From the NCBI GenBank assembly GCA_016188455.1, contig JACPHR010000021.1, positions 1 to 56,733 on the forward strand: a stretch of DNA of 56,733 nucleotides, given 5' to 3'. A program made the position numbers and the translations under genes. The DNA is from Candidatus Tayloriibacteriota bacterium (GTDB taxonomy: Bacteria > Patescibacteriota > Minisyncoccia > Phycocordibacterales > SIBU01). A model generated the notes under the pieces. The model was not told the origin of the DNA. It did not search any database and saw nothing but the letters and a program-made list of their open reading frames with translations. Positions 2,927 through 56,197 of the stretch are shown here, in pieces; position 1 is the first letter of the stretch; the number at the start of each line of letters is the position of its first letter.

Positions 2927-2982
2927 TTTTTCATTTTTTCAACTGTCATTTTCCACTTTAATATTTTATTTTTCATTTAAAC
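2927..2982. repeat. family-C inverted-repeat element, right arm (loaded copy)
   Basis: TTTTCATTTTTTCAACTGTCATTTTCCACTTTAATATTTTATTTTTCATTTAA, complementary to 2531-2587. Confidence 0.7.
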
Positions 2983-2985
2983 AAC

Positions 2986-3414
2986 ATGCGCTTCCAAGTC
3001 CCACAATTCATTGAGGTTGAAGACAAGATTTTCGGACCGCTGACGGTCAAGCAATTCATTTACCTGGCCGGCGGCGCCGGGCTCTGCTTTATCATCTATA
3101 CTTATCTGCCCTTCTACCTCGCCATCTTAGCCATTATTCCCGTGGCGACGCTCGCCGTCGCCTTGGCGCTCTACAAAGTCAACAACCGCGCTTTCATTTT
3201 CGTCATTGAAGCGGCTTTCAAATATCTTCTGGCGAACAAGCTTTACATCTGGAAGAAAACGGACAGAAAAATAGAAACCAGAAAAATAGAAAAAGAAGCG
3301 CCGGCAGTTTACGTGCCCAGACTCTCCGACAGCAAGCTCAAAGACTTGACTTGGAGTTTAGACATCAACGACAGCGCCAGCCTAGGAGCATCGGAGACGA
3401 TGCGGAAGGGCTAG
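2986..3414 (+). CDS. PrgI-family small membrane protein (T4SS-associated)
   Basis: The N-terminus MRFQVPQFIEVEDKIFGPLTVKQFIYLAGG followed by two adjacent TM helices is the signature I recall for PrgI-family proteins of Gram-positive conjugation loci. It lies upstream of a VirB4-like ATPase. Confidence 0.6.
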   Translation: MRFQVPQFIEVEDKIFGPLTVKQFIYLAGGAGLCFIIYTYLPFYLAILAIIPVATLAVALALYKVNNRAFIFVIEAAFKYLLANKLYIWKKTDRKIETRKIEKEAPAVYVPRLSDSKLKDLTWSLDINDSASLGASETMRKG

Positions 3415-3416
3415 CG

Positions 3417-3465
3417 CATTCATACCAATATACGAATTATACGAATGCTACAAATAACTACTAAT
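3417..3465. repeat. family-A (ATTAGTA/ATTCGTA-type) inverted-repeat element, left arm (loaded copy)
   Basis: CATTCATACCAATATACGAATTATACGAATGCTACAAATAACTACTAAT. It aligns with the left arms at 4575, 7580 and 46539, and is complementary to 3860-3908. Confidence 0.75.
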
Positions 3466-3846
3466 AAGGGGAAAAAGGTAGAGCTACTATACCCTGAACT
3501 ATCCTATAAGATAACTGGCGTTTGTTTCGCCGTACATAACGCGTTGGGACAATTCGCCCGAGAGAAACAGTATGGCGACTTGCTGGAGAAAAAATTTGCC
3601 GAAGCCGGAATGATATTTCAGAGGGAATTACTCGTTGGAAATATCGGCAACATTCTGGATTTTGTAGTAGAAAATAAAATCATTGTTGAACTTAAAGCGA
3701 AACGGCTGATACTTGCCGAGGATTATCGCCAACTGCAAAATTACCTCCAAGAATCCGGGCTACAACTCGGCTTGCTCATAAATTTCAGAAATAAATATCT
3801 AAAACCCGCACGGGTCGTTAGAATAGAAAAATATGTGGTAAAATAG
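3445..3846 (+). CDS. GxxExxY protein (PD-(D/E)xK-like; family known from 23S rRNA intervening sequences)
   Basis: ELLYPELSYKITGVCFAVHNALGQFAREKQYGDLLEKKF...VVENKIIVELKA...YRQLQNYL..GLQLGLLINF is the typical layout and ExxY core of this ~130-aa family. The first 7 codons lie inside the left repeat arm. Confidence 0.75.
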   Translation: MLQITTNKGKKVELLYPELSYKITGVCFAVHNALGQFAREKQYGDLLEKKFAEAGMIFQRELLVGNIGNILDFVVENKIIVELKAKRLILAEDYRQLQNYLQESGLQLGLLINFRNKYLKPARVVRIEKYVVK

Positions 3847-6501: not shown

Positions 6502-6617
6502 AAATTAAAATATTAAAAATCAAAGTGACAATGAAAAGTTAAAAATTACTAATTCCTCGTATCCAGAAGTTTTTAATTTTAATCTGTCATTTTCCATTTT
6601 GATATTTCATTTTTCAT
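6500..6617. repeat. family-C inverted-repeat element (empty)
   Basis: Left arm GAAAATTAAAATATTAAAAATCAAAGTGACAATGAAAAGTTAAAAATT and right arm GTTTTTAATTTTAATCTGTCATTTTCCATTTTGATATTTCATTTTTCAT. It fills the virB4 / 6630 spacer. Confidence 0.75.
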
Positions 6618-7715: not shown

Positions 7716-8747
7716 GTGATGAAATACTTCTTTATTGCACTTTTGCTAATATCCGCCACATTAGTACCGAATGGTGTCTATGGACAGGCCTTCCAAAGCC
7801 TCGGCGGCGAGGCAAGTAATGTGACTGTGCGCACCGAACCGCCAGCGCCCGGGCCAAACCAGTTTGTCAGCGCCATTATTGAAAGTTACGCCACGGACCT
7901 CAACCGCGCCGACATTGCTTGGTTCCTCAACAACAAGTTGGAAAAGGAAGCCGTCGGCGCAAAAACCTTTCTGTTCAAAACCGGCAGAGCCGGCAGCGTC
8001 TCAAATATTTTGATTGTCATAAAAACGGCCGAAGGCGAAACTCTCCAGCAAGTTCTCAACATCCGGCCCGCGTCGCTTGACCTCGTCTGGGAGGCCCAGT
8101 CCTACACGCCGCCTTTCTACCGCGGCAAAGCCCTTTACCCCTATCAAGGAACGGTCAAGCTCGTGGCCATGCCGAATATCGTAACTGAAACCGGCGCGAC
8201 CGTAAGCGCTAAAAATCTTGTTTATACCTGGTCAGTGGATGGCGATGTTGTCACCAGACTTTCAGGCTACGGTAAGAATTTCATATTTTTTAACGGCTCT
8301 ATACCGCTCGGCCCCGCGACCATTGAAGTGGAAGCGGCGTCACTTGACAAAAAATACAAAGCCACGGGCTCGGTGACACTCAGCCCGCAGGGCTCGGAAG
8401 TTTTGGTTTATGAGGACAATCCGCTCTACGGCGTGCTTTACAATAAAGCGCTCGGGGGCAATGTCACGCTCCAAAACGAGGAGATTAAACTAGCCGGCAT
8501 CCCTTATTTCATCGGGGTGAAGGAGCGGGAGAACGCCGGTCTCGCTTACGAATGGCGGCTGAACAACGAGCTGGTCAGCGGCGGGGCCAAAAGCAGTCTG
8601 GCCTTCAAACAGAGCGGCGGCGCGGGCGGCACAGCCTTGGTCTCGCTTCAAATTTCCAATCCGGCTAAAATTTTCCAATTTGCCAACGTCAGTCTTTCCT
8701 TGTCCTTCGGCCAAAAATCAGCCCCCAACTTATTTGGAGCGCCATGA
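7716..8747 (+). CDS. secreted hypothetical protein
   Basis: Signal-peptide-like N-terminus MKYFFIALLLISATLVPNGVYGQA. Its stop overlaps the next start (ATGA at 8744-8747), indicating translational coupling with the pilin-like gene. Confidence 0.5.
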   Translation: MMKYFFIALLLISATLVPNGVYGQAFQSLGGEASNVTVRTEPPAPGPNQFVSAIIESYATDLNRADIAWFLNNKLEKEAVGAKTFLFKTGRAGSVSNILIVIKTAEGETLQQVLNIRPASLDLVWEAQSYTPPFYRGKALYPYQGTVKLVAMPNIVTETGATVSAKNLVYTWSVDGDVVTRLSGYGKNFIFFNGSIPLGPATIEVEAASLDKKYKATGSVTLSPQGSEVLVYEDNPLYGVLYNKALGGNVTLQNEEIKLAGIPYFIGVKERENAGLAYEWRLNNELVSGGAKSSLAFKQSGGAGGTALVSLQISNPAKIFQFANVSLSLSFGQKSAPNLFGAP

Positions 8748-9679
8748 GATTAAAAAAGCGTAAAAAAATATCAGAAAGGCTGGCGATATTCGGCTTCCTT
8801 ATTTTATTTTCCAGCATTTTGTCGGTGCCTGTGTTTTCAGCCTACGGCTTAGACTATGTGCCGCTGGCACCGATAGAGGGCACAACACTGACCTGCGCAC
8901 AACCTCCCTGCGGCACAAACTTAAGTTATTACCTCACCGGCCTATTTAAAGTCGGCATCGCCGTGGCGGGTGTTTTGGCGTTTCTGGTGATTGTCTGGGG
9001 CGGCTTCACCTATCTTTCCACCGATGTCATTACCGGCAAGGAGGAAGGCAAGGCGAGAGTGGAGCGCGCCTTAGGCGGCCTTATCATTGCCCTCGCGGCC
9101 TATATTCTTCTCAACACTATCAACCCGCAATTAGTTAAGCTTAACCTCAATTTCGGCCCGAGGGCGGAGCTGAGAGAGGGCTTGGCCAGACCAGCTGACC
9201 TTATTTCCGAGAACACGAATCTAAGAAGTATAGAAACGTTGACGGCGGATAGGGCTGAATTTAGAGGAATGAACGCGGCCCGGTTGAATCAAGAGATTCA
9301 GGCTTTGAACGCAGTTTCACAAACAAGAGGCTTAACAGCCGAGGAAGAAGAAAGACTGGTAGAGCTTGGCATAATAAGGGACGGTAGCACAGCAATGAAT
9401 AAAATTGACGAAGTACAAGGCACTATCACTTCTGGATTAGGTAGCTCTGGTTTACCCTCATCACTAGCCAGAGACGCGCGCGCTGCTTTAGAGCAGCTCC
9501 GGATTGAAGTCAACACACGCATAGCGGCAATGGCGGCTACCGGGGCAACCGTGGGACAAATGCAGGCAGTCCGAGACAGATTTAACACAGCAGCCAGATT
9601 GATAGAAGCCTGTATTACTTACAGAAAGAATATTGTAAATGACAATGCGCGGGCCAATTTCAATCGTTTCTGCAAATAA
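8744..9679 (+). CDS. T4SS pilin-like protein (TrbC/VirB2-type, CPR pilin family) with C-terminal extension
   Basis: Signal/TM region, a Cys pair (CAQPPC), then YLTGLFKVGIAVAGVLAFLVIVWGGFTYLSTD..GKEEGKARVERALGGLIIALAAYILLNTINP: two TM helices around a charged loop, as in VirB2/TrbC-like pilins. An extra ~180 aa follows. Confidence 0.6.
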   Translation: MRLKKRKKISERLAIFGFLILFSSILSVPVFSAYGLDYVPLAPIEGTTLTCAQPPCGTNLSYYLTGLFKVGIAVAGVLAFLVIVWGGFTYLSTDVITGKEEGKARVERALGGLIIALAAYILLNTINPQLVKLNLNFGPRAELREGLARPADLISENTNLRSIETLTADRAEFRGMNAARLNQEIQALNAVSQTRGLTAEEEERLVELGIIRDGSTAMNKIDEVQGTITSGLGSSGLPSSLARDARAALEQLRIEVNTRIAAMAATGATVGQMQAVRDRFNTAARLIEACITYRKNIVNDNARANFNRFCK

Positions 9680-9693
9680 CCTGTGTCAAAAAT

Positions 9694-9741
9694 ATGTCCA
9701 AAAAAACCGCCTTCATTATCATAATTATATTTGTCCTCCTT
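9694..9741 (+). repeat. direct repeat: duplicated first 16 codons of the gene at 10354
   Basis: ATGTCCAAAAAAACCGCCTTCATTATCATAATTATATTTGTCCTCCT matches 10354-10401 (ATGTCCAAAAAAACCGCCGCAATTATTATAATCGTCTTCGTCCTCCT) at about 40/48 positions. This copy hits TAA after 16 codons. Confidence 0.8.
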
Positions 9742-9748
9742 TAACTTC

Positions 9749-10249
9749 ATGACTGCGCCCAAACACAACTTTGCGTTTATAGATGCCCAGAATGTCCATT
9801 TGGGCATCCAGTCGCTCGGCTGGGAGCTTGATTGGGGACGATTCAGAGTGTATCTGCGGGATAAATACAAAGTAGCCGAAGCCTATTTGTTTCTTGGATA
9901 TGTACCTGACAATCAAAAACTGTACGAGTATTTGCAAAAATCCAGTTTCATTCTAATCTTCAAACCGCTAGTTTGGAACAAAGACGGAACCGTAAAAGGA
10001 AATTGCGATGCTGACTTAGTACTTCACACGATTCTTAAAATCAATGAGTACGATAAGGCAATTATTGTAACAAGCGACGGAGATTTTTACTCGCTCGTAA
10101 GACACCTTTACGAAAATGGTAAGCTACTTTTTGTCTTGAGTCCGTATGTAAAAACTTGCTCAAAACTTCTGCGAAGGGAAGCTAAAGAGAAAATTTACTC
10201 GATGGATAATCTGTGGCAGAAACTTGGACGAGAAAAGTTTAGAAAATGA
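9749..10249 (+). CDS. NYN (LabA-like, PIN-related) domain protein
   Basis: NFAFIDAQNVHLG...AYLFLGY...NCDADLVLH...AIIVTSDGDFYSLV is the typical acidic-residue pattern of NYN/LabA ribonuclease-like domains. Confidence 0.7.
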   Translation: MTAPKHNFAFIDAQNVHLGIQSLGWELDWGRFRVYLRDKYKVAEAYLFLGYVPDNQKLYEYLQKSSFILIFKPLVWNKDGTVKGNCDADLVLHTILKINEYDKAIIVTSDGDFYSLVRHLYENGKLLFVLSPYVKTCSKLLRREAKEKIYSMDNLWQKLGREKFRK

Positions 10250-10353
10250 AAACGCACCGCGCAGACACAAAGACTGCGAGATGCGTTTCCTTATGGATAC
10301 TGGAATAGTAGCAAACTGCAGAAAGAAGTCAAGCAAAAAGGTATAATAAACCC

Positions 10354-11589
10354 ATGTCCAAAAAAACCGCCGCAATTATTATAATCGTCTTCGTCCTCCT
10401 CATCGCCGGAGGTTTCCTGGCTTTCTATTTTTACGCCAACCAAGACCAGGACAACAACATCGTCGGGCCGGAGAGTCGCGGCAATATTTTCCCGACCAGC
10501 CCCGCCGCCGGAGGCGCCCAAACTCAGGGTGGCGCGGCGCCAAGCCCGCAACCGCCCGCCGAAAGCGGCACCCGGGCGGCACCGGTGCTTAAAGAACTTT
10601 CAGAGCGCCCTAGTGCTGGGGCGGTGGCGCTGGCCGCATCATCAACCGTACTCGTGCGTTTTGTTGAACGGGGCACGGGCAATGTCTATGAGGTCGGGCC
10701 GGCGCGAGATGGTGAAACCCGCCTCTCCAATACCACTGTGCCAAAAATAGAAGAGGTCTTGTGGCATAAGGACGGCAGAAAAGTCATCCTCCGTTACGCC
10801 GGCGATGACGGCGACTCCATCAAAACTTACAGCGCCTCTCTCGCCGCCAAAGCCTCAGGGGAAGCCGAGGACTCGCTCCAAGGAGCCTTTCTGACTGAAA
10901 ATATCCGGGCGGTGGCGGCAAATCCCGACCAAAACAAGCTGTTCTATCTCTTGCAAGACGCGGGCGGCAGCACCGGCATCATAGCAGAATTTGACGGCGC
11001 CAGAAAAACCCAAATCTTTGATTCGCTCCTACAGGAATGGCTTGTGGCATGGCCGACGCCAACGACTGTTGCCCTCACGAGCAAACCTTCCGCGGGGGTC
11101 CCGGGCTTTTTGTTTCTTTTGAACACCCGAACCGGCGCCCTGACTCGGGCCATATCGGGCATCAAGGGTCTAACGGCTCGGGTCAGCCCGACCGGCTCGC
11201 TGGTCCTTTATGGGGAAAGTCTCCCCCAAGGGCTTTCCTTAAAAATTTATCCTTTTAGTAACGCATCCTTGCGAGAAACGGCCGTGGCCACCCTGCCCGA
11301 AAAATGCCTTTGGTCAAAAAACGACCCGGGGGCTTTATACTGCAGCGTGCCGTCGTACCTGCCAACCGGCAACTACCCCGACGACTGGTACAAAGGGCTG
11401 GTGGCGTTCTCGGATGACATTTGGAAAATTGACAGCCGGACGGGGGCGGGAGAACTACTGGCAAAGCTTAAAGATAACACTGCAAAAGACATAGACGGCA
11501 TCAACCTGTTTATGAGCCCGAGAGAAGATTATCTTTTCTTCATCAACAAAAACGATTTTCATCTATGGAGTTTGCGGATTCAAAACTGA
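10354..11589 (+). CDS. membrane-anchored hypothetical protein (possible beta-propeller ectodomain)
   Basis: N-terminal TM helix (AAIIIIVFVLLIAGGFLAFYF), a Pro/Ala-rich linker and a ~330-aa beta-rich region. No family recognised. Confidence 0.5.
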   Translation: MSKKTAAIIIIVFVLLIAGGFLAFYFYANQDQDNNIVGPESRGNIFPTSPAAGGAQTQGGAAPSPQPPAESGTRAAPVLKELSERPSAGAVALAASSTVLVRFVERGTGNVYEVGPARDGETRLSNTTVPKIEEVLWHKDGRKVILRYAGDDGDSIKTYSASLAAKASGEAEDSLQGAFLTENIRAVAANPDQNKLFYLLQDAGGSTGIIAEFDGARKTQIFDSLLQEWLVAWPTPTTVALTSKPSAGVPGFLFLLNTRTGALTRAISGIKGLTARVSPTGSLVLYGESLPQGLSLKIYPFSNASLRETAVATLPEKCLWSKNDPGALYCSVPSYLPTGNYPDDWYKGLVAFSDDIWKIDSRTGAGELLAKLKDNTAKDIDGINLFMSPREDYLFFINKNDFHLWSLRIQN

Positions 11590-11624
11590 ATAACTTATGA
11601 CTAACAACTGAATTACTGAATGAC
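11585..11624. repeat. family-B (CTGAATGAC-type) inverted-repeat element, left arm (loaded copy)
   Basis: CTGAATAACTTATGACTAACAACTGAATTACTGAATGACC, complementary to 11994-12033. Same family as 14284-14379. Confidence 0.7.
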
Positions 11625-11994
11625 CATGAGAAGATTTAGATTTTTGGATTGGGATGTATACAAAGACGCACGACGATTGTTTGTTGTTATTCTGTCTATC
11701 GTAAAGAAACTCCCAAAAGAATATCGCTATGAAATAGGTAGCCAAATTATCCGTGCTTGTTTCTCTGTGGTACTAAACATTGCGGAGGGAAGTGGAAAAC
11801 ACTCTGAAGCTGAACTTAATCGTTTTTTTGATATAGCCCTTGGTTCTTTGTTTGAAACACTGGCTGCGGTAGATGTATTACGCGAATGCACCTTAGTTGA
11901 AGAAAAAGTATTTTTTGAAGTTGAAAAATTAGCAACAAGTATTTCCAACCAACTTGGTGGATTCAAAAAACACATACGAGGGGGTTCCATCTAG
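11620..11994 (+). CDS. four-helix-bundle protein (23S rRNA intervening-sequence protein / Avd-like family)
   Basis: 124 aa. F.FLDWDVYKDARRLF..I..KLPKEYRYEIGSQIIRACFSVVLNIAEGSGKHSEAELNRFFDIALGSLFETL..L is the characteristic pattern of this family. Confidence 0.8.
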   Translation: MTMRRFRFLDWDVYKDARRLFVVILSIVKKLPKEYRYEIGSQIIRACFSVVLNIAEGSGKHSEAELNRFFDIALGSLFETLAAVDVLRECTLVEEKVFFEVEKLATSISNQLGGFKKHIRGGSI

Positions 11995-31799: not shown

Positions 31800-31889
31800 C
31801 GTGGACTAACCCTCCTTCGTCCAAGACTTCGGACGGGCACGGCGCGGACTGACGCGGAAGGGGAAATGGCGGGCTTTTTCTTATCCTCG

Positions 31890-31938
31890 CATTATTCGTA
31901 TTGATTAGTATCATTCGTGCCATTAGTATATTAGTATC
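31890..31938. repeat. family-A repeat, right-arm-type copy immediately upstream of ATG 31942
   Basis: CATTATTCGTATTGATTAGTATCATTCGTGCCATTAGTATATTAGTATC. Confidence 0.65.
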
Positions 31939-33136: not shown

Positions 33137-33211
33137 AGTTTAAGAGCGACACCGCAGGGCATTAACCCTGCGGGTAGCCCCGAACTCACCCTGCGCTCCG
33201 CGCAGGATATT

Positions 33212-33258
33212 GAATTCGTAGCTATTCGTATCATTCGCACCATTTGTATATTGGTATG
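33212..33258. repeat. family-A repeat, right-arm-type solo copy
   Basis: GAATTCGTAGCTATTCGTATCATTCGCACCATTTGTATATTGGTATG. Confidence 0.65.
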
Positions 33259-37530: not shown

Positions 37531-37649
37531 GGTATGCGAATAGCCTTAACGAATAGGCACACACGAATAATTCAACACTCGTTTCATTCGCATCCATTCG
37601 TAAATTAGTATTATATATTCGTATCATAGAATCAATTCTTATATTGGCA
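37531..37649. repeat. family-A-type palindromic element filling the pilM-pilN spacer
   Basis: GGTATGCGAATAGCC..ACGAATAATTC..TTTCATTCGCATCCATTCGTAAATTAGTATTATATATTCGTATCATAG..TATATTGGCAT. Confidence 0.6.
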
Positions 37650-38729
37650 TCATATATCTTGCGGTAACGCCAAGCCAATGGCGCTGGCGTAATCAAGGGA
37701 GTCAAGAAAAGGGATGGCTGGGATGTGGCGGTCATAGGCGAAAGCGTTCCGCCAAACATCCGCCACTTCAACCGGAATCTGCACGGCCGTTGAAAGATAT
37801 TCGTCAAAGCCAGCCAAACTGGCGTCTCGGCCGCAGAGAATTATTTTCTCGATTTTTCTGTCAGCCGCGCCTTGGGGTTTTTGGCGTGTTTGCCAGTAGA
37901 TAAAAAGCTTGTTGACCTCGTCTTTGATGGCGGAAACCGTGTTCATGAGAGAGAAAAATAACTCCATGTTTTTGCGATTTTTTACGAAACCCCGCTCCTC
38001 TTTCAGCCGCCGCGCGGCTTCCGCGTCTACCGAGAAATGTTTTTCAAGCGCGGCGGTCAAAGCGTCGCCGCCGATGGCAACCGACAAATTAAATTGCACC
38101 GCGCCGCGGCTGGCAATGGAGAGGTCGGTACCGGTTTCCCCGACGTTAACAATCAAAAAGGTGCCGAGGTCGCCTTTGGCAATCACCGCTCTGCTTGCCG
38201 CGGCGGAGCCAATGCTGAAAGCAAGCGGTTTTAAACCGGCCGATTTGATAATCTCAAGATAAGTTGCCACCATCTTCTTGGGCAAAACTGAAACACTGAC
38301 CTCAATGCGGTCCGCATCGGCGGAGTCCGGAATGACAACGTAATCAAAGACGGCGTCAGCCGCCGACATTGGCACATTTTCCTCAAGCCGAAGCTCAATG
38401 GCTTGGCGGAGGTCGGTAACGGCTCTTTTCGGCAATTCGGTTTTGAAAAGATAGGCTTTTTCTTCGGGCAATGAGACACTGACAAATTCCATGGAAAGTG
38501 CCTTTTGGAGCGAACGGAGGCTCTCCGTCACGGCCGATTTGTCGTTGATGTAGCCTTCTTTTATGGCGCCCGAAGGAATGGCCCGCGCGCCAAAGCGGCC
38601 CAAGACCAAGCCCCGGCGAACCTTGGCGAACTCAATGGCATGCGCCGCCCGCTCGGAGATGGCGAGACCCATCGGCCGCATTGCCAAAAACGCGGGAACC
38701 GGAAAAAAATCTGAAAAACTGCTTTTCAT
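37650..38729 (-). CDS. pilM: type IV pilus assembly protein PilM (actin-like ATPase)
   Basis: 359 aa with an actin/FtsA-like fold pattern (GLAISERAAHAIEF.., VNVGETGTDLSI.., GGDALT.., ILCGRDASLAGF). Confidence 0.85.
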   Translation of the reverse strand: MKSSFSDFFPVPAFLAMRPMGLAISERAAHAIEFAKVRRGLVLGRFGARAIPSGAIKEGYINDKSAVTESLRSLQKALSMEFVSVSLPEEKAYLFKTELPKRAVTDLRQAIELRLEENVPMSAADAVFDYVVIPDSADADRIEVSVSVLPKKMVATYLEIIKSAGLKPLAFSIGSAAASRAVIAKGDLGTFLIVNVGETGTDLSIASRGAVQFNLSVAIGGDALTAALEKHFSVDAEAARRLKEERGFVKNRKNMELFFSLMNTVSAIKDEVNKLFIYWQTRQKPQGAADRKIEKIILCGRDASLAGFDEYLSTAVQIPVEVADVWRNAFAYDRHIPAIPFLDSLDYASAIGLALPQDI

Positions 38730-40422: not shown

Positions 40423-40507
40423 GGAAGGGTCGGATAATGGTATTCCACCGGTCTTGAAAACCGGCGCCGGCAACGGCTTGCGAGTTCGAGTCTCGCCCCT
40501 TCCGCCA
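40423..40507 (+). tRNA. tRNA-Ser (anticodon TGA), long variable arm, CCA encoded
   Basis: Hand fold: GGAAGGG TC GGAT AATGGTA TTCC A CCGGT CTTGAAA ACCGG (variable arm CGCCGGCAACGGCTT) GCGAG TTCGAGT CTCGC CCCTTCC G CCA. Confidence 0.85.
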
Positions 40508-40657
40508 TGAACCGAGAGGACTGCTAAACGCAGTCCGAGCGGCTCATCATTAGCGTGATAGAGGCGAGACTCGAACGGCAGAGCAAAATTTTCAGCAGAA
40601 AATTTTGGGAGCCGGTGCCCAGACCAATTTTTGCGGCGGCAAAAATTTAGTCGCGGG

Positions 40658-40679
40658 CGAGTCTCGCCCCTTCCGCCAT
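40658..40679 (+). repeat. 22-nt direct repeat of the tRNA-Ser 3' end (att-like)
   Basis: CGAGTCTCGCCCCTTCCGCCAT is identical to 40487-40508. The intervening 150 nt contains an inverted T-arm copy (GGCGAGACTCGAAC, about 40563-40576). Confidence 0.8.
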
Positions 40680-40723
40680 TAAATATTTAGTATCGTATAG
40701 ACCCGAGTGCTATAATTAAAAAT

Positions 40724-42151
40724 ATGGCGATAATTTATTTGGTACAATCCACTCTTGATAAAACAAAAATCTACATCGGAAAAACCGATAGATCTTTGGC
40801 GGAAAGAAGAAAAGAACATGAGGATAAAGCAGCTAATCATAGTTCTACTAAGTTTCATTGCGAATTATTAAGGAAAGGGCTTGATAATTGGGAGTGGCGG
40901 ATACTTGAAACTCTCGATCCTGCTGCAAATGTTTTTGAAAGAGAAAAATATTGGATGCAAAAATTTGATGCACTTCCAATTGATCTATTAAATACAGCAT
41001 CAACAAATAGCAACACTGAAACGAAGCGTAAAAAAGCAGATACTCTCGCTCGTGCTGTTGGAGGTAAGAATGTTTGGAAAAGCGCCAGTGCCAAGAAATG
41101 GATGATATTGTCTGGAAAATTGAAACCGCTAGAGAATACTGAAACAAAGATTAAGTATGAAGGATTGCTTGATGCTGAGCGAAAAACTGGAGAAACAAGG
41201 GGTGCGATCAAAAAATCCTGTGATACAGGAATACCAACTTCTCGTGGCAAGCTTTATGCGTGGTTAGATATCAAGGGAAATCTAAAACTAACCGAAAACC
41301 ATATTAAGAAAGTTCCTAGGTTAAAGAGAGTTAAAAACAAAACCACGGGAGAAATTTATAATTCATTAGCAGATGCTGCCAAAAACATCGGCGTATCAAT
41401 GAACATAATTAGAGACGCATGTAATGGTAAATACAAAACTACAAAAGGTCAGATAGTTTGTTTTTTGGATGACAATGGGAACGAAGTATTAACCGAAACT
41501 CACAAAAATACCTTACTTCGGTTAGAAGAAAAAAAGAAAATTGGATTTGTGGCTTGGCGTATAGAAGATAAAAATCGCAGTAAACCTTATATATTTGACT
41601 CAATTCTTGAATTGATAAACTCAATAAAAAGGGACTCTGGCGAGGAGCTTTCTCGGAGTCATATCCTTGATATTTGCAAGGGTAAAAGACAGCACGACCA
41701 AGGTTGGAGAGTAGCATACTACGACAAAGAAAAGAAAGAACCTATTTTCAGAAACAAGCATCTACTACCAATTAGGGAAAAAATTCGTGGGGTAATCTGT
41801 TTAAATGATAATAAAGTTTTTTCAAATGCAACTGAGGCTGGCAAATTTTACAATTTAGAAAGTGGCCAAATACTGCTTTGTTGCGCCCGGAAATTAAAAA
41901 GTACAGGGAGAAATTTAAAAACAAAATACAAGTTTGCACACACCGACAAAGAAGGAAAACCGATCTTAACCCCATTACACAGTGAATCAGATTCCTGGCT
42001 CGGCAAGAAAATATTTTGCCCCGGGTTGGGAAAAGAATTTAGATCTGTGGCAGAATTTTGCAGAGAAACAAATATCCCAGCGAAACGTGTAAGTAAATAC
42101 CTAAAAGGGAAAAATATTGATCTTGGTGGCCTAACACTTGTTCAGGTGTAA
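40724..42151 (+). CDS. GIY-YIG homing-endonuclease-like protein with about five NUMOD1/HTH-like DNA-binding repeats
   Basis: The N-terminus has IIYLV..(11)..IYIGKT, R..EH and E.EKYWM (GIY-YIG). Repeated ~35-aa modules follow (..F.S...A.K..G.S...I...C.GK..). The gene is markedly AT-rich relative to its surroundings. Confidence 0.7.
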   Translation: MAIIYLVQSTLDKTKIYIGKTDRSLAERRKEHEDKAANHSSTKFHCELLRKGLDNWEWRILETLDPAANVFEREKYWMQKFDALPIDLLNTASTNSNTETKRKKADTLARAVGGKNVWKSASAKKWMILSGKLKPLENTETKIKYEGLLDAERKTGETRGAIKKSCDTGIPTSRGKLYAWLDIKGNLKLTENHIKKVPRLKRVKNKTTGEIYNSLADAAKNIGVSMNIIRDACNGKYKTTKGQIVCFLDDNGNEVLTETHKNTLLRLEEKKKIGFVAWRIEDKNRSKPYIFDSILELINSIKRDSGEELSRSHILDICKGKRQHDQGWRVAYYDKEKKEPIFRNKHLLPIREKIRGVICLNDNKVFSNATEAGKFYNLESGQILLCCARKLKSTGRNLKTKYKFAHTDKEGKPILTPLHSESDSWLGKKIFCPGLGKEFRSVAEFCRETNIPAKRVSKYLKGKNIDLGGLTLVQV

Positions 42152-47802: not shown

Positions 47803-47936
47803 AAAAACTTAAAAGTTAAAAATCAAGATTTAAAATTGAGTACCCAGCAATCTAACATGTCTCTTGGTAAAAAACAAGGTCTCAAAATTTTTAATTTTAA
47901 TCTGTCATTTTTCACTTTGATATTTACATTTTGAAT
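47803..47936. repeat. family-C inverted-repeat element (empty) upstream of ruvA
   Basis: The right arm CTCAAAATTTTTAATTTTAATCTGTCATTTTTCACTTTGATATTTACATTTTGAAT is nearly identical to 6569-6617. The left arm is AAAACTTAAAAGTTAAAAATCAAGATTTAAAATTGAG. Confidence 0.7.
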
Positions 47937-47954
47937 TATGTTACTATGTATATC

Positions 47955-48530
47955 ATGATTTCCCATCTTAAAGGAAGAATAATGGACGCGGGAGAGCGAT
48001 TTGTAGTTTTGGAAACCAACGGGGTAGGCTACAAAGTTTTCGTGACGTCGGAGACTCTGCGCGTCCTGCAAAAGCCGTCCGGCGAAACGAGCCTGTGGAC
48101 TTATCTCGCCGTGCGGGAAAACGCTCTGGACCTCTACGGCTTCACGGCCAAAGACGAACTTGAATTTTTTGAACTGCTCATTACCGTCTCCGGCATCGGT
48201 CCGAAAACCGCCCTTGGCATTTTAAGCGTTACCACTATAAAAAATCTCCGCCAGGCCATCGCCTCGGGCGAAACGGCGCATCTGACAAAAGTGTCCGGCA
48301 TTGGCAAAAAAGTGGCGGACAAAATCGCGCTTGAGCTCCGCGACAAGCTTGATTTTCTAGAGAGCGAAAAAGATACAGGCGACATGCGCGACGAATCGGA
48401 CACCATTGAAGGACTCAAGGCTTTAGGCTACAGCGAGCGCGAGGCGCGAGAGGCGCTGAAGAAACTGCCGAAAAAAATCTCTGGCACGAGCGAAATGGTG
48501 AAGCAAGCGTTAAAATTGCTCGGGGAATAA
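47955..48530 (+). CDS. ruvA: Holliday junction DNA helicase subunit RuvA
   Basis: MISHLKGRI......VVLETNGVGYKV, HhH motifs (LLITVSGIGPKTALGIL, KVSGIGKKVADKIALEL) and C-terminal domain III (GLKALGYSEREAREAL). Confidence 0.9.
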   Translation: MISHLKGRIMDAGERFVVLETNGVGYKVFVTSETLRVLQKPSGETSLWTYLAVRENALDLYGFTAKDELEFFELLITVSGIGPKTALGILSVTTIKNLRQAIASGETAHLTKVSGIGKKVADKIALELRDKLDFLESEKDTGDMRDESDTIEGLKALGYSEREAREALKKLPKKISGTSEMVKQALKLLGE

Positions 48531-48613
48531 CGGCGAAGAGTTTTGGGAAATAAATATCCTCTGAACTTAAGCTGACACTTTACTCTGAAAGCATAATTTT
48601 GTCCAAGAGAATA

Positions 48614-48647
48614 TTCTACTATCCTAGCGATCGCCAGGATAGTAGAA
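48614..48647. repeat. family-F palindrome centred on GCGATCGC (second copy)
   Basis: TTCTACTATCCTAGCGATCGCCAGGATAGTAGAA. Confidence 0.7.
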
Positions 48648-48704
48648 TAAAAGAAAGGCCTCGCGACGAATCGCAAGGCCGTTGTGAATGAAAGAGTACG
48701 ATGC

Positions 48705-48929
48705 TTAGAGGTCGAATTCTCCTCCTTTGACACCCTTAATGAAGGCGGTCCATTCATTATGAGTGAAGAAAAGAGTTTTCCTGTGCTCGTCCTTACTATC
48801 GCGCAGGGCAACTCCCTGTTCCTTCATAGCCACCTGAACGCACCAGTGATCATGTCTGCGGTTGGTCCAGGAGGATGTACGAAAATCAGAATCTTGGACG
48901 GGGAATTCCTTTTTTTCTTTGTTTTTCAC
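48705..48929 (-). CDS. DUF397-like small protein
   Basis: FRTSSWTNRRHDHWCVQVA....GVALRDSKDEHRKTLFFTHNEWTAFIKGVKGGEFD matches the W.KSS.S...CVEVA...V.VRDSKDP....L.F....W..F....K.GEFD pattern I recall for actinobacterial DUF397 proteins. Confidence 0.6.
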   Translation of the reverse strand: MKNKEKKEFPVQDSDFRTSSWTNRRHDHWCVQVAMKEQGVALRDSKDEHRKTLFFTHNEWTAFIKGVKGGEFDL

Positions 48930-49090
48930 GCTAAGTCCTTTCTATGTTTTTGTTGAACTGCCAATATAAAACTAGCAGAAAATGTCGCGAAAAGATGCAT
49001 TTCTGATATAATTGAGGGCATAGAGCGGGAATATCCTATAATCATAGGCACACTTAAGAGATTTAATATCCGACCTTTTCGCCGACAAGA

Positions 49091-49822
49091 ATGCTTGAAC
49101 ATCACTTAAAAGCAGCCGGATTGAACGAAAAAGAAGCCAGCGTGTACCTGGCGATTCTTGAACTGGGCGAATCATCCGTCCAGAGAATCGCCGATAAGGC
49201 GGGTATAAAAAGAACGACAGTATATGATGTCATTGAATCTCTGAAGGAAAAAGGACTGATCGGCAATACTCTTAAAGGCAAGCGGCGAAAATTCTTTGTG
49301 GACGATCCACGCGGAATTTTAAGGATGCTTGACGAGAAGAGAAATAAAATTGAGAAAATCATTCCTGATCTGCTTTCTAAGTCGGGAGCGTTCGATAAAA
49401 AACCCCGTTCCCGTTTCTTCGAGGGAATCGAGAGCATGAAGGAGATCTATCATGACATTCTCAAGCACTCCGATGCTCCAATAAAATCCTGGATGACTGA
49501 AGCATCCCTTGATATGTTTGATCGGGATTTCATTGAATTCTTCAACTCAAATCGCATTAAAAACAAAATATGGGCGCAGATGATCGGCCCTGACACGCCG
49601 CGACTGCGGGAATTTCAAAATCAAGATGCGAAATTCTTGAGAAAAACAATTCTGGACCGGCACAAAGTGTTTCCTTTCGGAGTAGAAATTACTTTATACG
49701 GCAATGGGTCAATAGGCATGATTTCCTTTGAGGAAAAAATCGGACTGATTTTTGAAAGCCAGAAACTCTCTTTGGCTTTGCAAAATGCGTTCGACGGGCA
49801 TTGGACATTCCTTGGAGGGTAG
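49091..49822 (+). CDS. TrmB-family HTH transcriptional regulator
   Basis: L...GLNEKEASVYLAILELGESSVQRIADKAGIKRTTVYDVIESLKEKGLI is the TrmB-type winged helix, followed by a C-terminal effector-like domain. Confidence 0.65.
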   Translation: MLEHHLKAAGLNEKEASVYLAILELGESSVQRIADKAGIKRTTVYDVIESLKEKGLIGNTLKGKRRKFFVDDPRGILRMLDEKRNKIEKIIPDLLSKSGAFDKKPRSRFFEGIESMKEIYHDILKHSDAPIKSWMTEASLDMFDRDFIEFFNSNRIKNKIWAQMIGPDTPRLREFQNQDAKFLRKTILDRHKVFPFGVEITLYGNGSIGMISFEEKIGLIFESQKLSLALQNAFDGHWTFLGG

Positions 49823-49850
49823 TCAACAGGAATAAAAGAAAAACGGCCCC

Positions 49851-49993
49851 GCGACGAATCGGACGCCATTGAAGGACTCAAGGCTTTAGGCTACAGCGAG
49901 CGCGAGGCGCGAGAGGCGCTGAAGAAACTGCCGAAAAAAATCTCTGGCACGAGCGAGCGCATCAAGCAGGCGCTGAAAATTTTAGGGAAATAA
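49851..49993 (+). pseudogene. orphan duplicate of the ruvA 3' end (domain III fragment)
   Basis: 143 nt align to 48388-48530. The first 106 nt have a single mismatch and the last 37 nt are diverged (SERIKQALKILGK* versus SEMVKQALKLLGE*). The terminator at 49997-50021 follows. Confidence 0.8.
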
Positions 49994-55536: not shown

Positions 55537-55609
55537 GCGCCCATAGCTCAGTTGGTAGAGCACCTGCCTTTTAAGCAGAGGGTCGCAGGTTCGATTCCTG
55601 CTGGGCGCA
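55537..55609 (+). tRNA. tRNA-Lys (anticodon TTT), CCA not encoded
   Basis: Hand fold: GCGCCCA TA GCTC AGTTGGTA GAGC A CCTGC CTTTTAA GCAGA GGGTC GCAGG TTCGATT CCTGC TGGGCGC A. Confidence 0.85.
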
Positions 55610-55660
55610 CACGCCAGAAAAATCTTCACTGCTGAAGATTTTTCTGGACGTGCGCGGGAC
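55605..55660 (+). repeat. 56-nt tRNA trailer hairpin, copy 1 (after tRNA-Lys)
   Basis: GCGCACACGCCAGAAAAATCTTCACTGCTGAAGATTTTTCTGGACGTGCGCGGGAC has one mismatch to 56142-56197. It starts inside the acceptor 3' strand. Confidence 0.85.
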
Positions 55661-56072: not shown

Positions 56073-56146
56073 GCGCGTTTAGCTCAGTTGGTCAGAGCAC
56101 CTCGTTTACACCGAGGGGGTCGGGAGTTCAAATCTCTCAGCGCGCA
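56073..56146 (+). tRNA. tRNA-Val (anticodon TAC), CCA not encoded
   Basis: Hand fold: GCGCGTT TA GCTC AGTTGGTCA GAGC A CCTCG TTTACAC CGAGG GGGTC GGGAG TTCAAAT CTCTC AGCGCGC A. Confidence 0.85.
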
Positions 56147-56197
56147 CACGCCAGAAAAATCTTCACTGCTGAAGATTTTTCTGGACGTGCACGGGAC
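56142..56197 (+). repeat. 56-nt tRNA trailer hairpin, copy 2 (after tRNA-Val)
   Basis: GCGCACACGCCAGAAAAATCTTCACTGCTGAAGATTTTTCTGGACGTGCACGGGAC. Confidence 0.85.

Follow-up and report, generated by a model that had tools for sequence, protein, structure and literature searches.

The locus lies in a 56,733-nucleotide stretch of DNA from a Candidatus Tayloriibacteriota bacterium, which we analyzed at its full length and refer to as the window. The features at the locus, numbered from the first letter of the window, are as follows.

8744..9679, plus strand: pilin-like gene, 311 aa, the left neighbour of the insertion site, with a weak T4SS_pilin match below the Pfam cut-off.
9694..9744, plus strand: R1 mini-ORF, consisting of the upstream copy (9694-9741) of the first 48 nt of gene X and then a TAA stop at 9742-9744.
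9749..10249, plus strand: NYN (LabA-like) nuclease gene, 166 aa, Pfam PF01936 at E = 3e-15, stop codon at 10247-10249.
10240..10298, minus strand: predicted ~60-nt antisense small RNA, with the 5' tail AUCCAUAAGGAAA, a hairpin and a U-run.
10305..10332, minus strand: sigma-70-type promoter of the antisense RNA, with -35 TTGACT at 10332-10327, -10 TACTAT at 10310-10305 and a 16-nt spacer with TG.
10336..10353, plus strand: the trail between the conserved core and R2, with TATAAT at 10342-10347, 6 nt 5' of the gene X ATG.
10354..10401, plus strand: R2, the downstream 48-nt copy and present working 5' end of gene X.
10354..11589, plus strand: gene X, 411 aa, whose protein begins MSKKTAAIIIIVFVLLI and has an N-terminal membrane anchor.

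An earlier sequence-only reading of this DNA had noticed that the start of gene X is present twice, and its coordinates (pilin stop, 14-nt gap, ATG at 9694, TAA at 9742, gene X at 10354) are correct; the pilin-like ORF stops at 9677-9679, 14 nt before the ATG at 9694. Where it had estimated a match of about 40 of 48 between R1 and the first 16 codons of gene X, we computed an ungapped identity of 39/48 (39/47 across 9694-9740). The similarity runs from the ATG itself through codon 16, there are 612 nt between the copies, and a repeat search of the window recovers the pair independently, as family D9. The first 18 nt, ATGTCCAAAAAAACCGCC, are identical in R1 and R2; when we searched the 56.7 kb for this 18-mer with up to three mismatches, only the R1 and R2 sites matched, as compared to 0.22 matches predicted from shuffles. 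The closeness of R1 and R2 (39/48) is comparable to that of orthologous gene X starts between related genomes (33-42/48). The sequence-only reading had set two other origins against a duplication, a generic motif and an independent gene, and neither agrees with the data: chance or a generic signal-peptide motif is ruled out by the 18-mer statistics and the orthologue comparison, and an independent conserved small gene is ruled out by the finding that the mini-ORF is never present without NYN.

The R1 ORF encodes MSKKTAFIIIIIFVLL in 16 codons and ends 4 nt 5' of the NYN ATG. R1 is restricted to NYN-carrying genomes, and its ORF, stop and 4-nt spacing are retained in three lineages, while the peptide sequence is not conserved across the three. 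Purifying selection on the peptide is unsupported, as SNPs in the L089 population are densest in R1 and every change there is nonsynonymous. The retained frame, stop and spacing suggest that R1 may serve as a leader ORF. We also considered the template and variable repeats of a DGR, which a nearby Avd-like gene had suggested, and rejected this origin because the mismatches are not adenine-specific (eight R1/R2 differences are T>G, T>C, C>A, C>T, T>C, A>G, A>C and T>C); the Avd-like 23S-IVS protein gene is moreover missing from relatives that have the same repeat, which argues against a DGR.

To place the duplication in its genomic context, we compared the locus with related genomes, in which the order pilin-like gene, gene X, R3H/jag, yidC is conserved. 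Gene X has 74 homologues and is conserved in one Patescibacteria clade, with no family matched in Pfam; the pilin-like orthologues are hypervariable among relatives (26-55% identical). In four lineages (L083, L084/85, L086 and L087/88; gene X 57-70% identical) the site is empty: the pilin-like gene is followed after 2-18 nt by gene X, the 48-mer is single copy, and neither the NYN gene nor the mini-ORF is present. In three lineages (the window, L081 and L089-L094) the site is filled, with the same architecture and homologous junctions. Because four lineages are empty and three are filled, these relatives show that the cassette inserted after codon 16 of gene X and that the gene start was duplicated, as the sequence-only reading had proposed, and the adjacency of a pilin-like gene and gene X without NYN that it looked to relatives for is found in the four empty lineages. 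L081 and L089 have homologous trails (GGTATnnAA..AAACCC), and the TATAAT in the trail of the window is a possible outward promoter that would give a leaderless gene X mRNA.

The protein encoded between the copies scores 57.4 bits against PF01936 (cut-off 24.2), and its profile matches PDB 2qip at E = 9e-12. The acidic residues D12, D87, D89, D110 and D112, as expected of an NYN active site, are invariant across 21 homologues. In an AF2 model (pLDDT 84.4) the predicted fold is PIN-like alpha/beta, and Foldseek aligns it with 2qip (TM 0.72) and with the MARF1 NYN domain (TM 0.61-0.63). We found more than 1100 homologues. The region upstream of NYN has no conserved promoter or RBS, and homology between loci begins ~12-18 nt (4-6 codons) inside the ORF. 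When the protein was compared with Pfam, NCBIfam and PADLOC, no transposase family was matched. The bacterial group of NYN proteins was listed as of unknown function in a 2017 classification of the PIN-like superfamily (PMC5499597), and neither cassette behaviour nor an associated RNA is described for this group there or in our full-text literature searches. These searches returned no paper that ties NYN/LabA proteins to antisense RNAs, toxin-antitoxin function or mobility in Patescibacteria.

The sequence-only reading held that the 612 bp contain only the NYN gene. The NYN gene is there; however, the interval also contains a conserved antisense RNA gene, which including its promoter spans 10240-10332 on the minus strand. 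We found a ~92-nt 3' module common to all 81 NYN loci examined, and on the minus strand its order is sigma-70 promoter, hairpin, U-run. In the window the hairpin has 15 bp (10248-10290) with one conserved U.C mismatch, and the RNA covers the NYN stop codon at 10247-10249. To determine which strand folds, we counted the hairpin pairs in an alignment of 78 distinct modules: read as minus strand there are 914 Watson-Crick pairs, 103 G.U and 0 A.C, as compared to 0 G.U on the plus strand. In this alignment 94.7% of cells are paired, compensatory changes occur in 11 of 14 pairs, and 0 of 500 shuffles equal it; the minimum free energy is -26.1 kcal/mol (z = -6.6). A covariance model of the module scores 80.7 bits in the window and also matches relatives outside the training set, among them one homologue at 48% identity. 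A promoter scan picks the same sigma-70 promoter independently; the positions conserved in the 78 sequences are TTGAC, TG and TAnnnT (TTGAC-17-TGnTAnnnT), and the -35 box is the right limit of the sequence that is conserved between loci. Thus, it is the minus strand on which the hairpin folds, and the same strand has a conserved promoter and U-run. Based on the promoter, hairpin, U-run, minus-strand G.U bias and covariation, the module is predicted to encode a previously undescribed antisense RNA of ~60 nt. Rfam scans (gathering thresholds and E ≤ 10) returned tRNAs and noise only, with no family for the module, and a covariance search of the window found no second copy and no orphan module. 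A small ORF starting from a conserved RTG after the hairpin was considered and rejected, as several loci have ATA or GTA instead.

To identify how the cassette behaves elsewhere, we searched 185,579 species genomes and found 463 related stretches; in Patescibacteria, Bacteroidota and other groups the cassette occupies loci that are unrelated to one another. The insert is 0.66 kb and the conserved unit, the NYN ORF plus the module, is ~590 nt. Among 81 loci, homology is confined to the NYN ORF and module, and the flanks are unrelated. At 22 of these 81 loci the cassette is bracketed by imperfect, locus-specific repeats of 23-200 nt, so other NYN genes do lie between duplicated ends, as the sequence-only reading had anticipated, and a second filled/empty pair (L028/L095) shows the same behaviour as the window. 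In a control comparison (350-nt flanks, score ≥20) we found repeats at 12 of 74 NYN loci as compared to 10 of 304 control ORFs (Fisher p = 2e-4), which agrees with the earlier suggestion that a broader mechanism leaves long duplications of target ends; overall, the repeat-bracketed share is 16-27% of NYN loci and ~3% of other genes. Because the control genes with flanking repeats include MazF, a methylase fragment and an IS200 transposase, the signature is not specific to NYN. Every repeat includes a gene start, a gene stop or a terminator, and both neighbours therefore remain intact. Plasmid and phage collections contain no cassette match at E ≤ 1e-10. One IMG/VR contig carries a relative at 48% identity.

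Duplicated gene ends are the classic mark of islands carried by integrases, which regenerate tRNA or gene ends, and an integrase or Xer-like recombinase supplied in trans and working at an att site overlapping the gene start would explain why the same site is filled in three lineages. Between R1 and R2, however, there are only the NYN gene and the RNA gene, with no transposase or recombinase, and in the window there is no integrase gene within or beside the cassette. The repeats differ from locus to locus in sequence, length and the gene feature that they contain, with no common att core, and variable filler separates the conserved core from the repeats: unrelated sequence of 0-146 nt on the left and of 4 to 76 nt or more on the right. 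We found no conserved termini abutting the repeats in the cassette copies. We therefore regard a recombinase in trans as highly improbable.

The positions of the repeat edges bear on a different possibility, in which the NYN nuclease cuts naive alleles near gene boundaries and repair copies in the cassette together with the duplication. Of 16 well-defined cases, 10 have a repeat edge no more than 9 nt from a start or stop codon, in L028 the edges are sharp and lie 3 nt 5' of the ATG, and in the pairs L015/L019 and L061/L063 synteny breaks exactly at the cassette edge, with shared flanks on one side only. Such homing-like behaviour would also fit diverged lineages that are filled at the same site with empty alleles between them, and mosaic NYN alleles. 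Against this, the nearest solved relatives (MARF1 NYN and 2qip) are RNases or of unknown function, classical homing makes no duplications, the sites share no DNA target motif, and the edge clustering could stem from selection and differential decay; we give this explanation very little weight. An RNA or cDNA origin through a template-switching reverse transcriptase, prompted by repeats that start at an ATG or TSS, is ruled out by orientation, as the duplicated segment has the same orientation as NYN in the window and the opposite one in L028. At the junctions of the best-preserved cases there is no microhomology above 1-2 nt. Among the cassette loci we found no demonstrably fresh insertion with a long, 100% identical repeat; the sole perfect repeat (29/29, at L002) is a hairpin and possibly a generic motif.

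To follow the history of the alleles, we compared NYN with its hosts. NYN protein identity is 87.1% between the window and L081, 86.7% between the window and L089, and 83.9% between L081 and L089. A single ancient insertion before all seven lineages, with at least three precise losses between R1 and R2 and an NYN gene that is merely more conserved, would agree with the homologous junctions in all three filled lineages, and direct repeats do allow the cassette to be excised precisely, with gene X made whole again. However, NYN stays flat (87/87/84%) over the lineage pairs in which host proteins drop from 80-86% to 58-61%, and between the window and L081 the 5' part of NYN is 97-98% identical at the nucleotide level, as compared to ~61-90% (mostly 70-85%) for gene X. 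The closest relative of NYN changes inside the gene, after ~10080. These data show the NYN alleles to be recombinant mosaics, with distances that do not follow those of the hosts, and horizontal exchange is therefore required. Vertical inheritance alone is, in our judgement, very unlikely.

The repeats themselves carry a similar record. In the window and L081, 1 of 48 positions splits both R1 copies from both R2 copies, and the remaining differences are singletons specific to one lineage; because only this position separates the R1s from the R2s, the duplication was near-perfect at its origin. In the L089 lineage R1 and R2 are 43/48 identical to each other, as compared to 36-39 to the copies of other lineages, and they have derived states in common; therefore, gene conversion or joint import is required there. 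These shared states would also fit a Campbell-type route. Here, R1 and R2 of a donor would recombine to release the cassette as a circle with one gene X start, and a single crossover with the homologous gene X start of a recipient would insert it, automatically between two copies. Such a circle accounts for repeats that vary in length and are imperfect from the outset and for the occupancy of the same site in distant lineages with no recombinase; for pairing, it could rely on the conserved island at the very start of gene X (18 nt). Yet it leaves the first arrival at many unrelated loci unexplained, the window and L081 copies were near-identical at their split and not donor/recipient mosaics, and no circular form was observed. 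With 48 bases, of which 18 are perfect, the match would barely reach or fall short of the length that RecA-mediated crossover usually needs. Taken together, we consider this route unlikely.

The repeat at ruvA, which the sequence-only reading had brought under the same logic, exists in the window; however, it is a sharp mosaic (104/105, then 25/39) in which one copy looks donor-derived, and it points to homology-anchored import over plain duplication. The same logic does not extend to the tRNA genes, where the similarity of tRNA-Lys and tRNA-Val is a common hairpin trailer and not a target duplication.

We favour, with a probability of roughly 0.6, the reading that a recombinase-less cassette of NYN and antisense RNA was inserted by host processes and left a true target duplication. 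The cassette would consist of an NYN-family (PIN-like) nuclease gene and a convergent, constitutively promoted antisense RNA of ~60 nt that has its terminator hairpin in common with NYN and covers the stop codon of that gene; an arrangement of this kind resembles a 3'-overlapping type I toxin-antitoxin or an antisense-controlled nuclease module, in which NYN may have a toxin-like role. The cassette would have arrived in the operon of the pilin-like gene and gene X, 48 nt into gene X, and these 48 nt would have been copied in situ; up to the split of the window and L081 the two copies would have stayed essentially identical. R2 would then preserve gene X, probably expressed from the TATAAT at the right edge of the cassette, while R1 would become a 16-codon leader ORF whose translational coupling may let the promoterless NYN be translated. 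Insertion by host replication or recombination is favoured because the cassette lacks a transposase and conserved ends and its duplications vary in length; the molecular route may have been a template switch or a staggered break with fill-in, perhaps with a one-sided homology anchor. In gene-dense genomes an event would survive only if its duplication includes a gene end or an intergenic signal, and the filled allele would later move between lineages by DNA uptake and homologous recombination. A bolder and rather doubtful proposal is that this is a new kind of minimal recombinase-less element that enters at gene boundaries and copies tens to hundreds of target bases, perhaps triggered by its nuclease at transcription or translation starts, and whose duplicated, conserved gene end is a portable homology arm for homing into the same site of lineages with flanking genes too divergent for recombination.

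Bacteria of the Candidate Phyla Radiation have genomes of ~1 Mb with hardly any intergenic space and few classical mobile elements, and how they acquire genes is poorly understood. The locus offers a clean, datable case of gene gain in this group, and it illustrates how long duplications of target-gene ends let an insertion enter an operon with neither neighbour killed. Our analysis further reveals that LabA-like NYN nucleases are widely paired with a structured antisense RNA. If the pairing is a toxin-antitoxin-like or defence module, it would provide the first testable function for bacterial LabA-like NYN proteins and would extend antisense-controlled toxin systems to Patescibacteria and Bacteroidota.

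Among known systems, insertion sequences and transposons differ from the cassette in having a transposase, conserved ends and a fixed duplication length. Genomic islands that duplicate att sites are similar in that direct repeats of a gene end bracket the insert and the target gene stays intact; in contrast, the cassette has no integrase, a cargo of 0.6 kb and variable, locus-specific repeats with no common att core. Like integron cassettes, it has a promoterless ORF of ~0.5-0.7 kb followed by an imperfect hairpin that folds on the bottom strand. Its consensus, however, contains no R'/R'' cores (RYYYAAC...GTTRRRY), no IntI is nearby, and there are no arrays, the module being single copy per locus and one per window; unlike attC, the hairpin is surrounded by a sigma-70 promoter and a U-run, indicating an RNA, and target duplications bracket the cassette. 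A lone nuclease gene among conserved genes, filled and empty alleles and mosaics recall free-standing homing endonucleases, although NYN is not a known homing family, the sites are many and unrelated, and the target is duplicated. In homology-facilitated illegitimate recombination in transformable bacteria, recipient DNA is usually deleted. The cassette is like the products of this process, or of a template switch, in that there is no dedicated recombinase, the junctions are without conserved ends and one side is possibly homology-anchored (the ruvA mosaic and the one-sided flanks); it differs in that tens to 200 nt are recurrently duplicated and not deleted.

With respect to its parts, the protein resembles LabA-like NYN proteins (PF01936, COG1432; 2qip; MARF1) in Pfam score, invariant acidic residues and predicted fold. 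Type I toxin-antitoxin systems with 3'-overlapping antisense RNAs include txpA/RatA and bsrG/SR4 of B. subtilis, and nuclease toxins are found in SymE/SymR and RalR/RalA. Compared in silico with these, the cassette likewise pairs a protein gene with a convergent, cis-encoded RNA that has its own promoter and overlaps the gene at the 3' end through a common terminator hairpin, and it is small, patchy in distribution and horizontally mobile. It departs from them in encoding a soluble 166-aa NYN nuclease, not a hydrophobic peptide of <60 aa, and in lacking a conserved promoter for the protein gene. The loop and the U.C mismatch of the hairpin are conserved in sequence, which could equally mean recognition by a protein, as in type III systems.

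We read the ORFs over positions 9000-11400 of the window and found that a short mini-ORF, 14 bases past the end of the pilin-like ORF, repeats the start of a downstream gene, gene X:

9679 (+), end of the pilin-like ORF
9694-9744 (+), 16-codon mini-ORF ATGTCC...CTT TAA, product MSKKTAFIIIIIFVLL
9749-10249 (+), NYN ORF
10354-11589 (+), gene X, 411 aa, protein start MSKKTAAIIIIVFVLLI

The two copies (R1, 9694-9741, and R2, 10354-10401) match at 39 of 48 positions without gaps, the first 18 and the last 8 bases being identical; the left boundary lies exactly at the ATG and there is no similarity beyond the repeat. The shared 18-mer occurs at two sites only, R1 and R2, with up to three mismatches allowed (0.22 expected), and the pair was also recovered by a repeat search of the window, as family D9. 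The ORF between the copies has a clear NYN domain (Pfam E = 3e-15). These data confirm the sequence-only reading that a duplicated gene X start surrounds an NYN gene.

To compare this site across lineages, we took relatives of gene X from metagenomes and assemblies (L-numbers denote loci from other genomes; filled loci carry the NYN gene and empty ones lack it). In four lineages (L083, L084/85, L086 and L087/88), with gene X 57-70% identical to that of the window, the site is empty: gene X follows the pilin-like gene after 2-18 nt, there is a single 48-mer, and both the NYN gene and the mini-ORF are absent. In two lineages besides the window, L081/82 (gene X 80% identical) and L089-L094 (58%), the site is filled, in the order pilin-like gene, 16-codon remnant plus TAA, 4 nt, NYN gene, noncoding stretch and gene X. 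All three filled lineages have homologous sequences at the left joint (TTAAyTTm ahead of the NYN ATG) and at the right joint (GGTATnnAA..AAACCC ahead of the gene X ATG), and from these joints we infer that the three stem from one founding insertion. With the empty sites as outgroups, 1 of 48 positions separates the R1 copies from the R2 copies of the window and L081, and the rest are singletons. Thus, R1 and R2 were virtually identical at the window-L081 split and near-perfect when made, and later decayed to 39-42/48. The earlier proposal of an insertion into the gene X start with duplication is borne out by the four empty lineages with one 48-mer and the three filled lineages with homologous joints. 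A 23S-rRNA-intervening-sequence (four-helix-bundle, Avd-like) gene at 11620-11994, between gene X and the R3H/jag gene, is missing at that place in L081, L086, L087 and L089, and therefore counts as a second insertion, specific to the window and lying 30 nt downstream of gene X.

A search with the NYN protein gave more than 1100 homologues, 58-87% identical to it. We found 463 matching stretches in 185,579 species genomes, mainly in Patescibacteria and also in Chitinophagaceae, other Bacteroidota, Cloacimonadota and one gammaproteobacterial MAG. Across 80 loci fetched for comparison (81 counting the window), nucleotide homology covers window positions 9761-10340 only and the flanks are unrelated; the conserved core runs from about 12-18 nt (4-6 codons) inside the ORF to about 90 nt beyond it. 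The protein belongs to the LabA-like NYN family, a bacterial group given as function unknown in a 2017 classification of the PIN-like superfamily (PMC5499597). It has five invariant aspartates, its predicted structure (pLDDT 84) superposes on 2qip (TM 0.72) and on the MARF1 NYN RNase domain (TM 0.61-0.63), and the PADLOC NYN model matches it weakly. No conserved promoter or RBS was found upstream of the ORF.

The part of the core beyond the ORF, the 3' module, is present at 81 of 81 loci with a constant length (91-96 nt in full-length copies). Its minus-strand order is CTTGACA, ~17 nt including TG, TAnnnT, ~8-12 nt, AUCCAyAAGAAAA, a 15-bp stem and then UUUUCAUUU; the stem has a single conserved mismatch (U.C) and a loop of the UUUCGU type. 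The conserved TTGAC, TG and TAnnnT are exactly the defining positions of a sigma-70 promoter with an extended -10, and a generic promoter scan independently found:

10332-10305 (-), sigma-70 promoter TTGACT-16-TACTAT with TG

In the stem, 94.7% of cells are paired and compensatory changes occur in 11 of 14 pairs; 0 of 500 shuffles were as good, and slid controls gave 37-58%. There are 103 G.U pairs when the minus strand is folded and 0 when the plus strand is folded, and because these non-Watson-Crick pairs fit the minus strand alone, it is the folding strand. The window module folds at -26.1 kcal/mol (z = -6.6). A covariance model from the module alignment scores 80.7 bits at 10244-10334 (-), with no other match in the window; on relatives outside the training set it scores 81.5 bits in L081 and 73 bits in L089-94, and it has no match at empty-site loci. 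No Rfam family matches the module. From the promoter, the covarying minus-strand hairpin and the covariance-model matches, we predict that the cassette encodes an ~60-nt RNA antisense to the 3' end of the NYN mRNA, which would cover the NYN stop codon, with both transcripts using one bidirectional terminator hairpin. The NYN gene had been taken as the sole content between the copies; the gene is there, but so is this conserved module. On L097 (IMGVR_UViG_3300021440_001248), a contig classed as viral, an NYN homologue at 1087-1592 (48% protein identity) has the module after it (53.6 bits, outside the training set). Since the module is kept beside so divergent a homologue, the protein-RNA association is old.

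We aligned the 700 nt upstream of NYN to the 700 nt downstream at every locus, with shuffled controls, and found direct repeats well above shuffles at 22 of 81 NYN loci (23-200 nt, about 78-100% identical, different at each locus). When flanks were set to 350 nt and a score of at least 20 was required, repeats flank 12 of 74 NYN ORFs versus 10 of 304 other ORFs of at least 100 aa in the same DNA, the window's own NYN ORF being among these ten (odds ratio 5.7, p = 2e-4), and 4 of 183 ORFs not adjoining NYN. The upstream copy ends 0-146 nt ahead of the NYN ATG, the downstream copy in compact cases starts 4-76 nt past the -35 box, and the filler between cassette core and repeats is not conserved. 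Every repeat covers a gene boundary or intergenic signal, a geometry that keeps both neighbour genes intact.

Sequence duplicated around the NYN cassette
5' end of downstream gene: window, L032, L071, L031, L074
3' end of upstream gene: L046, L063, L037, L057
5' end of divergent gene: L028
3' end of convergent gene: L007, L045
Terminator hairpins: L012, L035, L055, L052

L028 has an inverted cassette flanked by two copies (41/43) of the first 43 nt of a PIF1-like helicase gene; L095, with a helicase 82-83% identical and the same FAD-oxidase neighbour, has one copy and no NYN gene and is the empty partner of L028. In 10 of 16 well-defined cases (e.g. window 9694, L032 2873, L028 2916, L046 2039, L057 663), a start or stop codon is found no more than 9 nt from one edge of the repeat. 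In four cases of a duplicated 5' gene end (window, L032, L071, L028), the repeat begins 0-6 nt before the ATG, and the young L028 insertion has a sharp edge that precedes the ATG by 3 nt and follows the TATAAT of its empty relative by 9 nt. These edges may reflect the mechanism, or equally selection plus differential decay. Control genes with flanking repeats include accessory ones (MazF, an N6-methylase fragment, an IS200 transposase, an ArsR regulator); therefore, the signature is general to gene insertion in these genomes, with NYN a frequent passenger.

Because the repeat began as a near-perfect copy of resident sequence, the best-supported class of route to the duplication is a replicative or illegitimate event in which the target is used twice. 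For example, a nascent strand could jump to incoming DNA and rejoin upstream of its departure point, or a staggered break could be filled in; selection would purge every outcome harming a gene. We rejected a dedicated transposition system, there being no transposase, conserved ends or fixed length, and excluded an integrase with a common att site, a DGR and integron attC. A cDNA route is out, as the duplicated segment and NYN point the same way in the window and opposite ways in L028. In a Campbell-type single crossover, a circle with one repeat copy would integrate, which accounts for spread among homologous sites but leaves arrival at new loci unexplained.

The same logic had been proposed for ruvA and for tRNA genes in the window. 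At ruvA we found:

48387-48530 and 49850-49993, last 144 nt of ruvA, both copies stopping at the ruvA stop
48531-49849, 1.3-kb insert
48705-48929 (-), DUF397 gene
49091-49822, TrmB-like HTH gene

The gene-end repeat around an insert holds; however, it does not look like a plain duplication, with 104/105 identity over the first 105 nt and 25/39 over the last 39 nt to the stop codon. This mosaic suggests that incoming DNA carried its own ruvA end and was homology-anchored on that side. The right junction has a third partial copy at 48646-48673, and the insert possibly came from two successive insertions. Among NYN loci, L015 and L019, from related genomes, share 90.6% identity over 2.8 kb and lose it exactly where the module ends, with L061/L063 similar; both pairs are colinear over one flank and the cassette, and their similarity is gone 1-10 nt from the module end. 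L060 versus L070 and L004 versus L002 differ by an extra stretch of DNA (~1.8-2 kb) inserted immediately 5' of the NYN start (breakpoints in all four pairs around locus positions 2950-3600). The one-sided shared flanks with breaks at the module end point the same way, to homology-anchored entry, and the extra DNA at the NYN start shows that cassette edges are recombination hot spots.

At the tRNA genes, a 3'-end repeat is seen for tRNA-Ser(tga), and the tRNA-Lys/tRNA-Val similarity was rejected as a target duplication, being a shared trailer or terminator. These and other repeats of the window are:

40423-40507, tRNA-Ser(tga); its last 21 nt plus 4 nt (40487-40511) recur 171 nt downstream at 40658-40682 (24/25), after a 146-nt filler with an inverted T-arm copy inside
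40724-42151, GIY-YIG/NUMOD homing-endonuclease-like gene after this repeat
55537-55660 and 56073-56197, tRNA-Lys(ttt) and tRNA-Val(tac), with one shared ~52-nt hairpin trailer (CACACGCCAGAAAAATCTTCACTGCTGAAGATTTTTCTGGACGTGC) after each
3422-3466/3860-3908, 4576-4620/4634-4682, 7581-7625/7638-7686 and 12732-12780/13515-13559, paired AT-rich intergenic repeats of heptamer-like units (TACGAAT, TACTAAT, TACAAAT), often inverted
31889-31937, 33209-33257 and 37616-37650, further repeats of this kind
3445-3846, PD-(D/E)XK (PDDEXK_3) nuclease gene bracketed by one such pair
2936-2976, 6577-6617 and 47887-47934, AT-rich motif TTTTCAnCTGTCATTTTCCAyTTTrATATTTyATTTTTCAT, just 5' of several genes including ruvA and a PrgI-like gene, which may be a lineage-specific promoter or leader

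Among host proteins, the window and L081 are the closest pair (gene X 80%, R3H 86%), followed by L086 and L084 (68-75%), L087 (62-69%), and L089 and L083 (56-65%). NYN identities (window-L081 87.1%, window-L089 86.7%, L081-L089 83.9%) do not follow this order. In sliding nucleotide comparisons, the window is 87-98% identical to L081 from the first R1 base to ~10080 and 63-75% thereafter; its identity to L089 is 65-87% over the first part and rises to 80-88% over the last third. The NYN region (9751-10260) is thus a recombinant mosaic, its 5' two-thirds 90-98% identical to L081 and its 3' third nearer the far more distant L089. Gene X nucleotide identity is about 61-90% to L081 (mostly 70-85%) and about 42-75% to L089, and the 3' end of the pilin-like gene is unalignable. 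Because the mosaic NYN departs from host order, we conclude that the cassette was swapped between lineages by homologous recombination at the same site. Filled lineages are separated by empty ones, and R1 and R2 of L089 share derived states (43/48 to each other, 36-39 to other lineages' copies), which calls for gene conversion or for both copies having been imported together. One idea that fits is that R1, beside the hypervariable pilin gene, may be the sole left-hand homology for exchange. Plasmid and phage collections yielded no relatives and IMG/VR one distant relative only; therefore, free-DNA uptake is the likeliest vehicle of spread.

Gene X now uses R2 as its working start. Transcription coming from upstream would end at the hairpin, and a TATAAT (10342-10347) located 6 nt ahead of the gene X ATG, with homologous counterparts in L081 and L089, could give a leaderless transcript. 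In all three filled lineages, R1 keeps its ATG, 16 codons, stop and 4-nt gap to the NYN ATG, a geometry with which translation of the promoterless NYN gene could be coupled to the operon. The R1 peptide is not conserved. In the L089 population, R1 has 2-3 changes per 48 nt, all nonsynonymous, R2 has 0/48, the module plus the trail up to R2 (10336-10353 in the window) 0/116, and NYN 1-4/501. Selection on R1 acts, if anything, on ORF geometry alone.

In the literature and Rfam, we found no description of the cassette, its RNA or its insertion signature; its chief value lies in the RNA-nuclease pairing and in a tractable case of gene gain in Patescibacteria. We rate the insertion as recombinase-independent gene insertion with long target duplication; integrase-borne islands leave similar gene-end duplications, but here there is neither an integrase nor a common att site. 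We rate the cassette as a putative antisense-regulated selfish or defence-type nuclease module. The NYN-RNA pair should not be classed as a type I toxin-antitoxin member, as the defining small-peptide toxin is absent and NYN toxicity is putative; its working would nevertheless resemble that of type I toxin-antitoxin systems of the 3'-overlap class, or of antisense-controlled nuclease genes.
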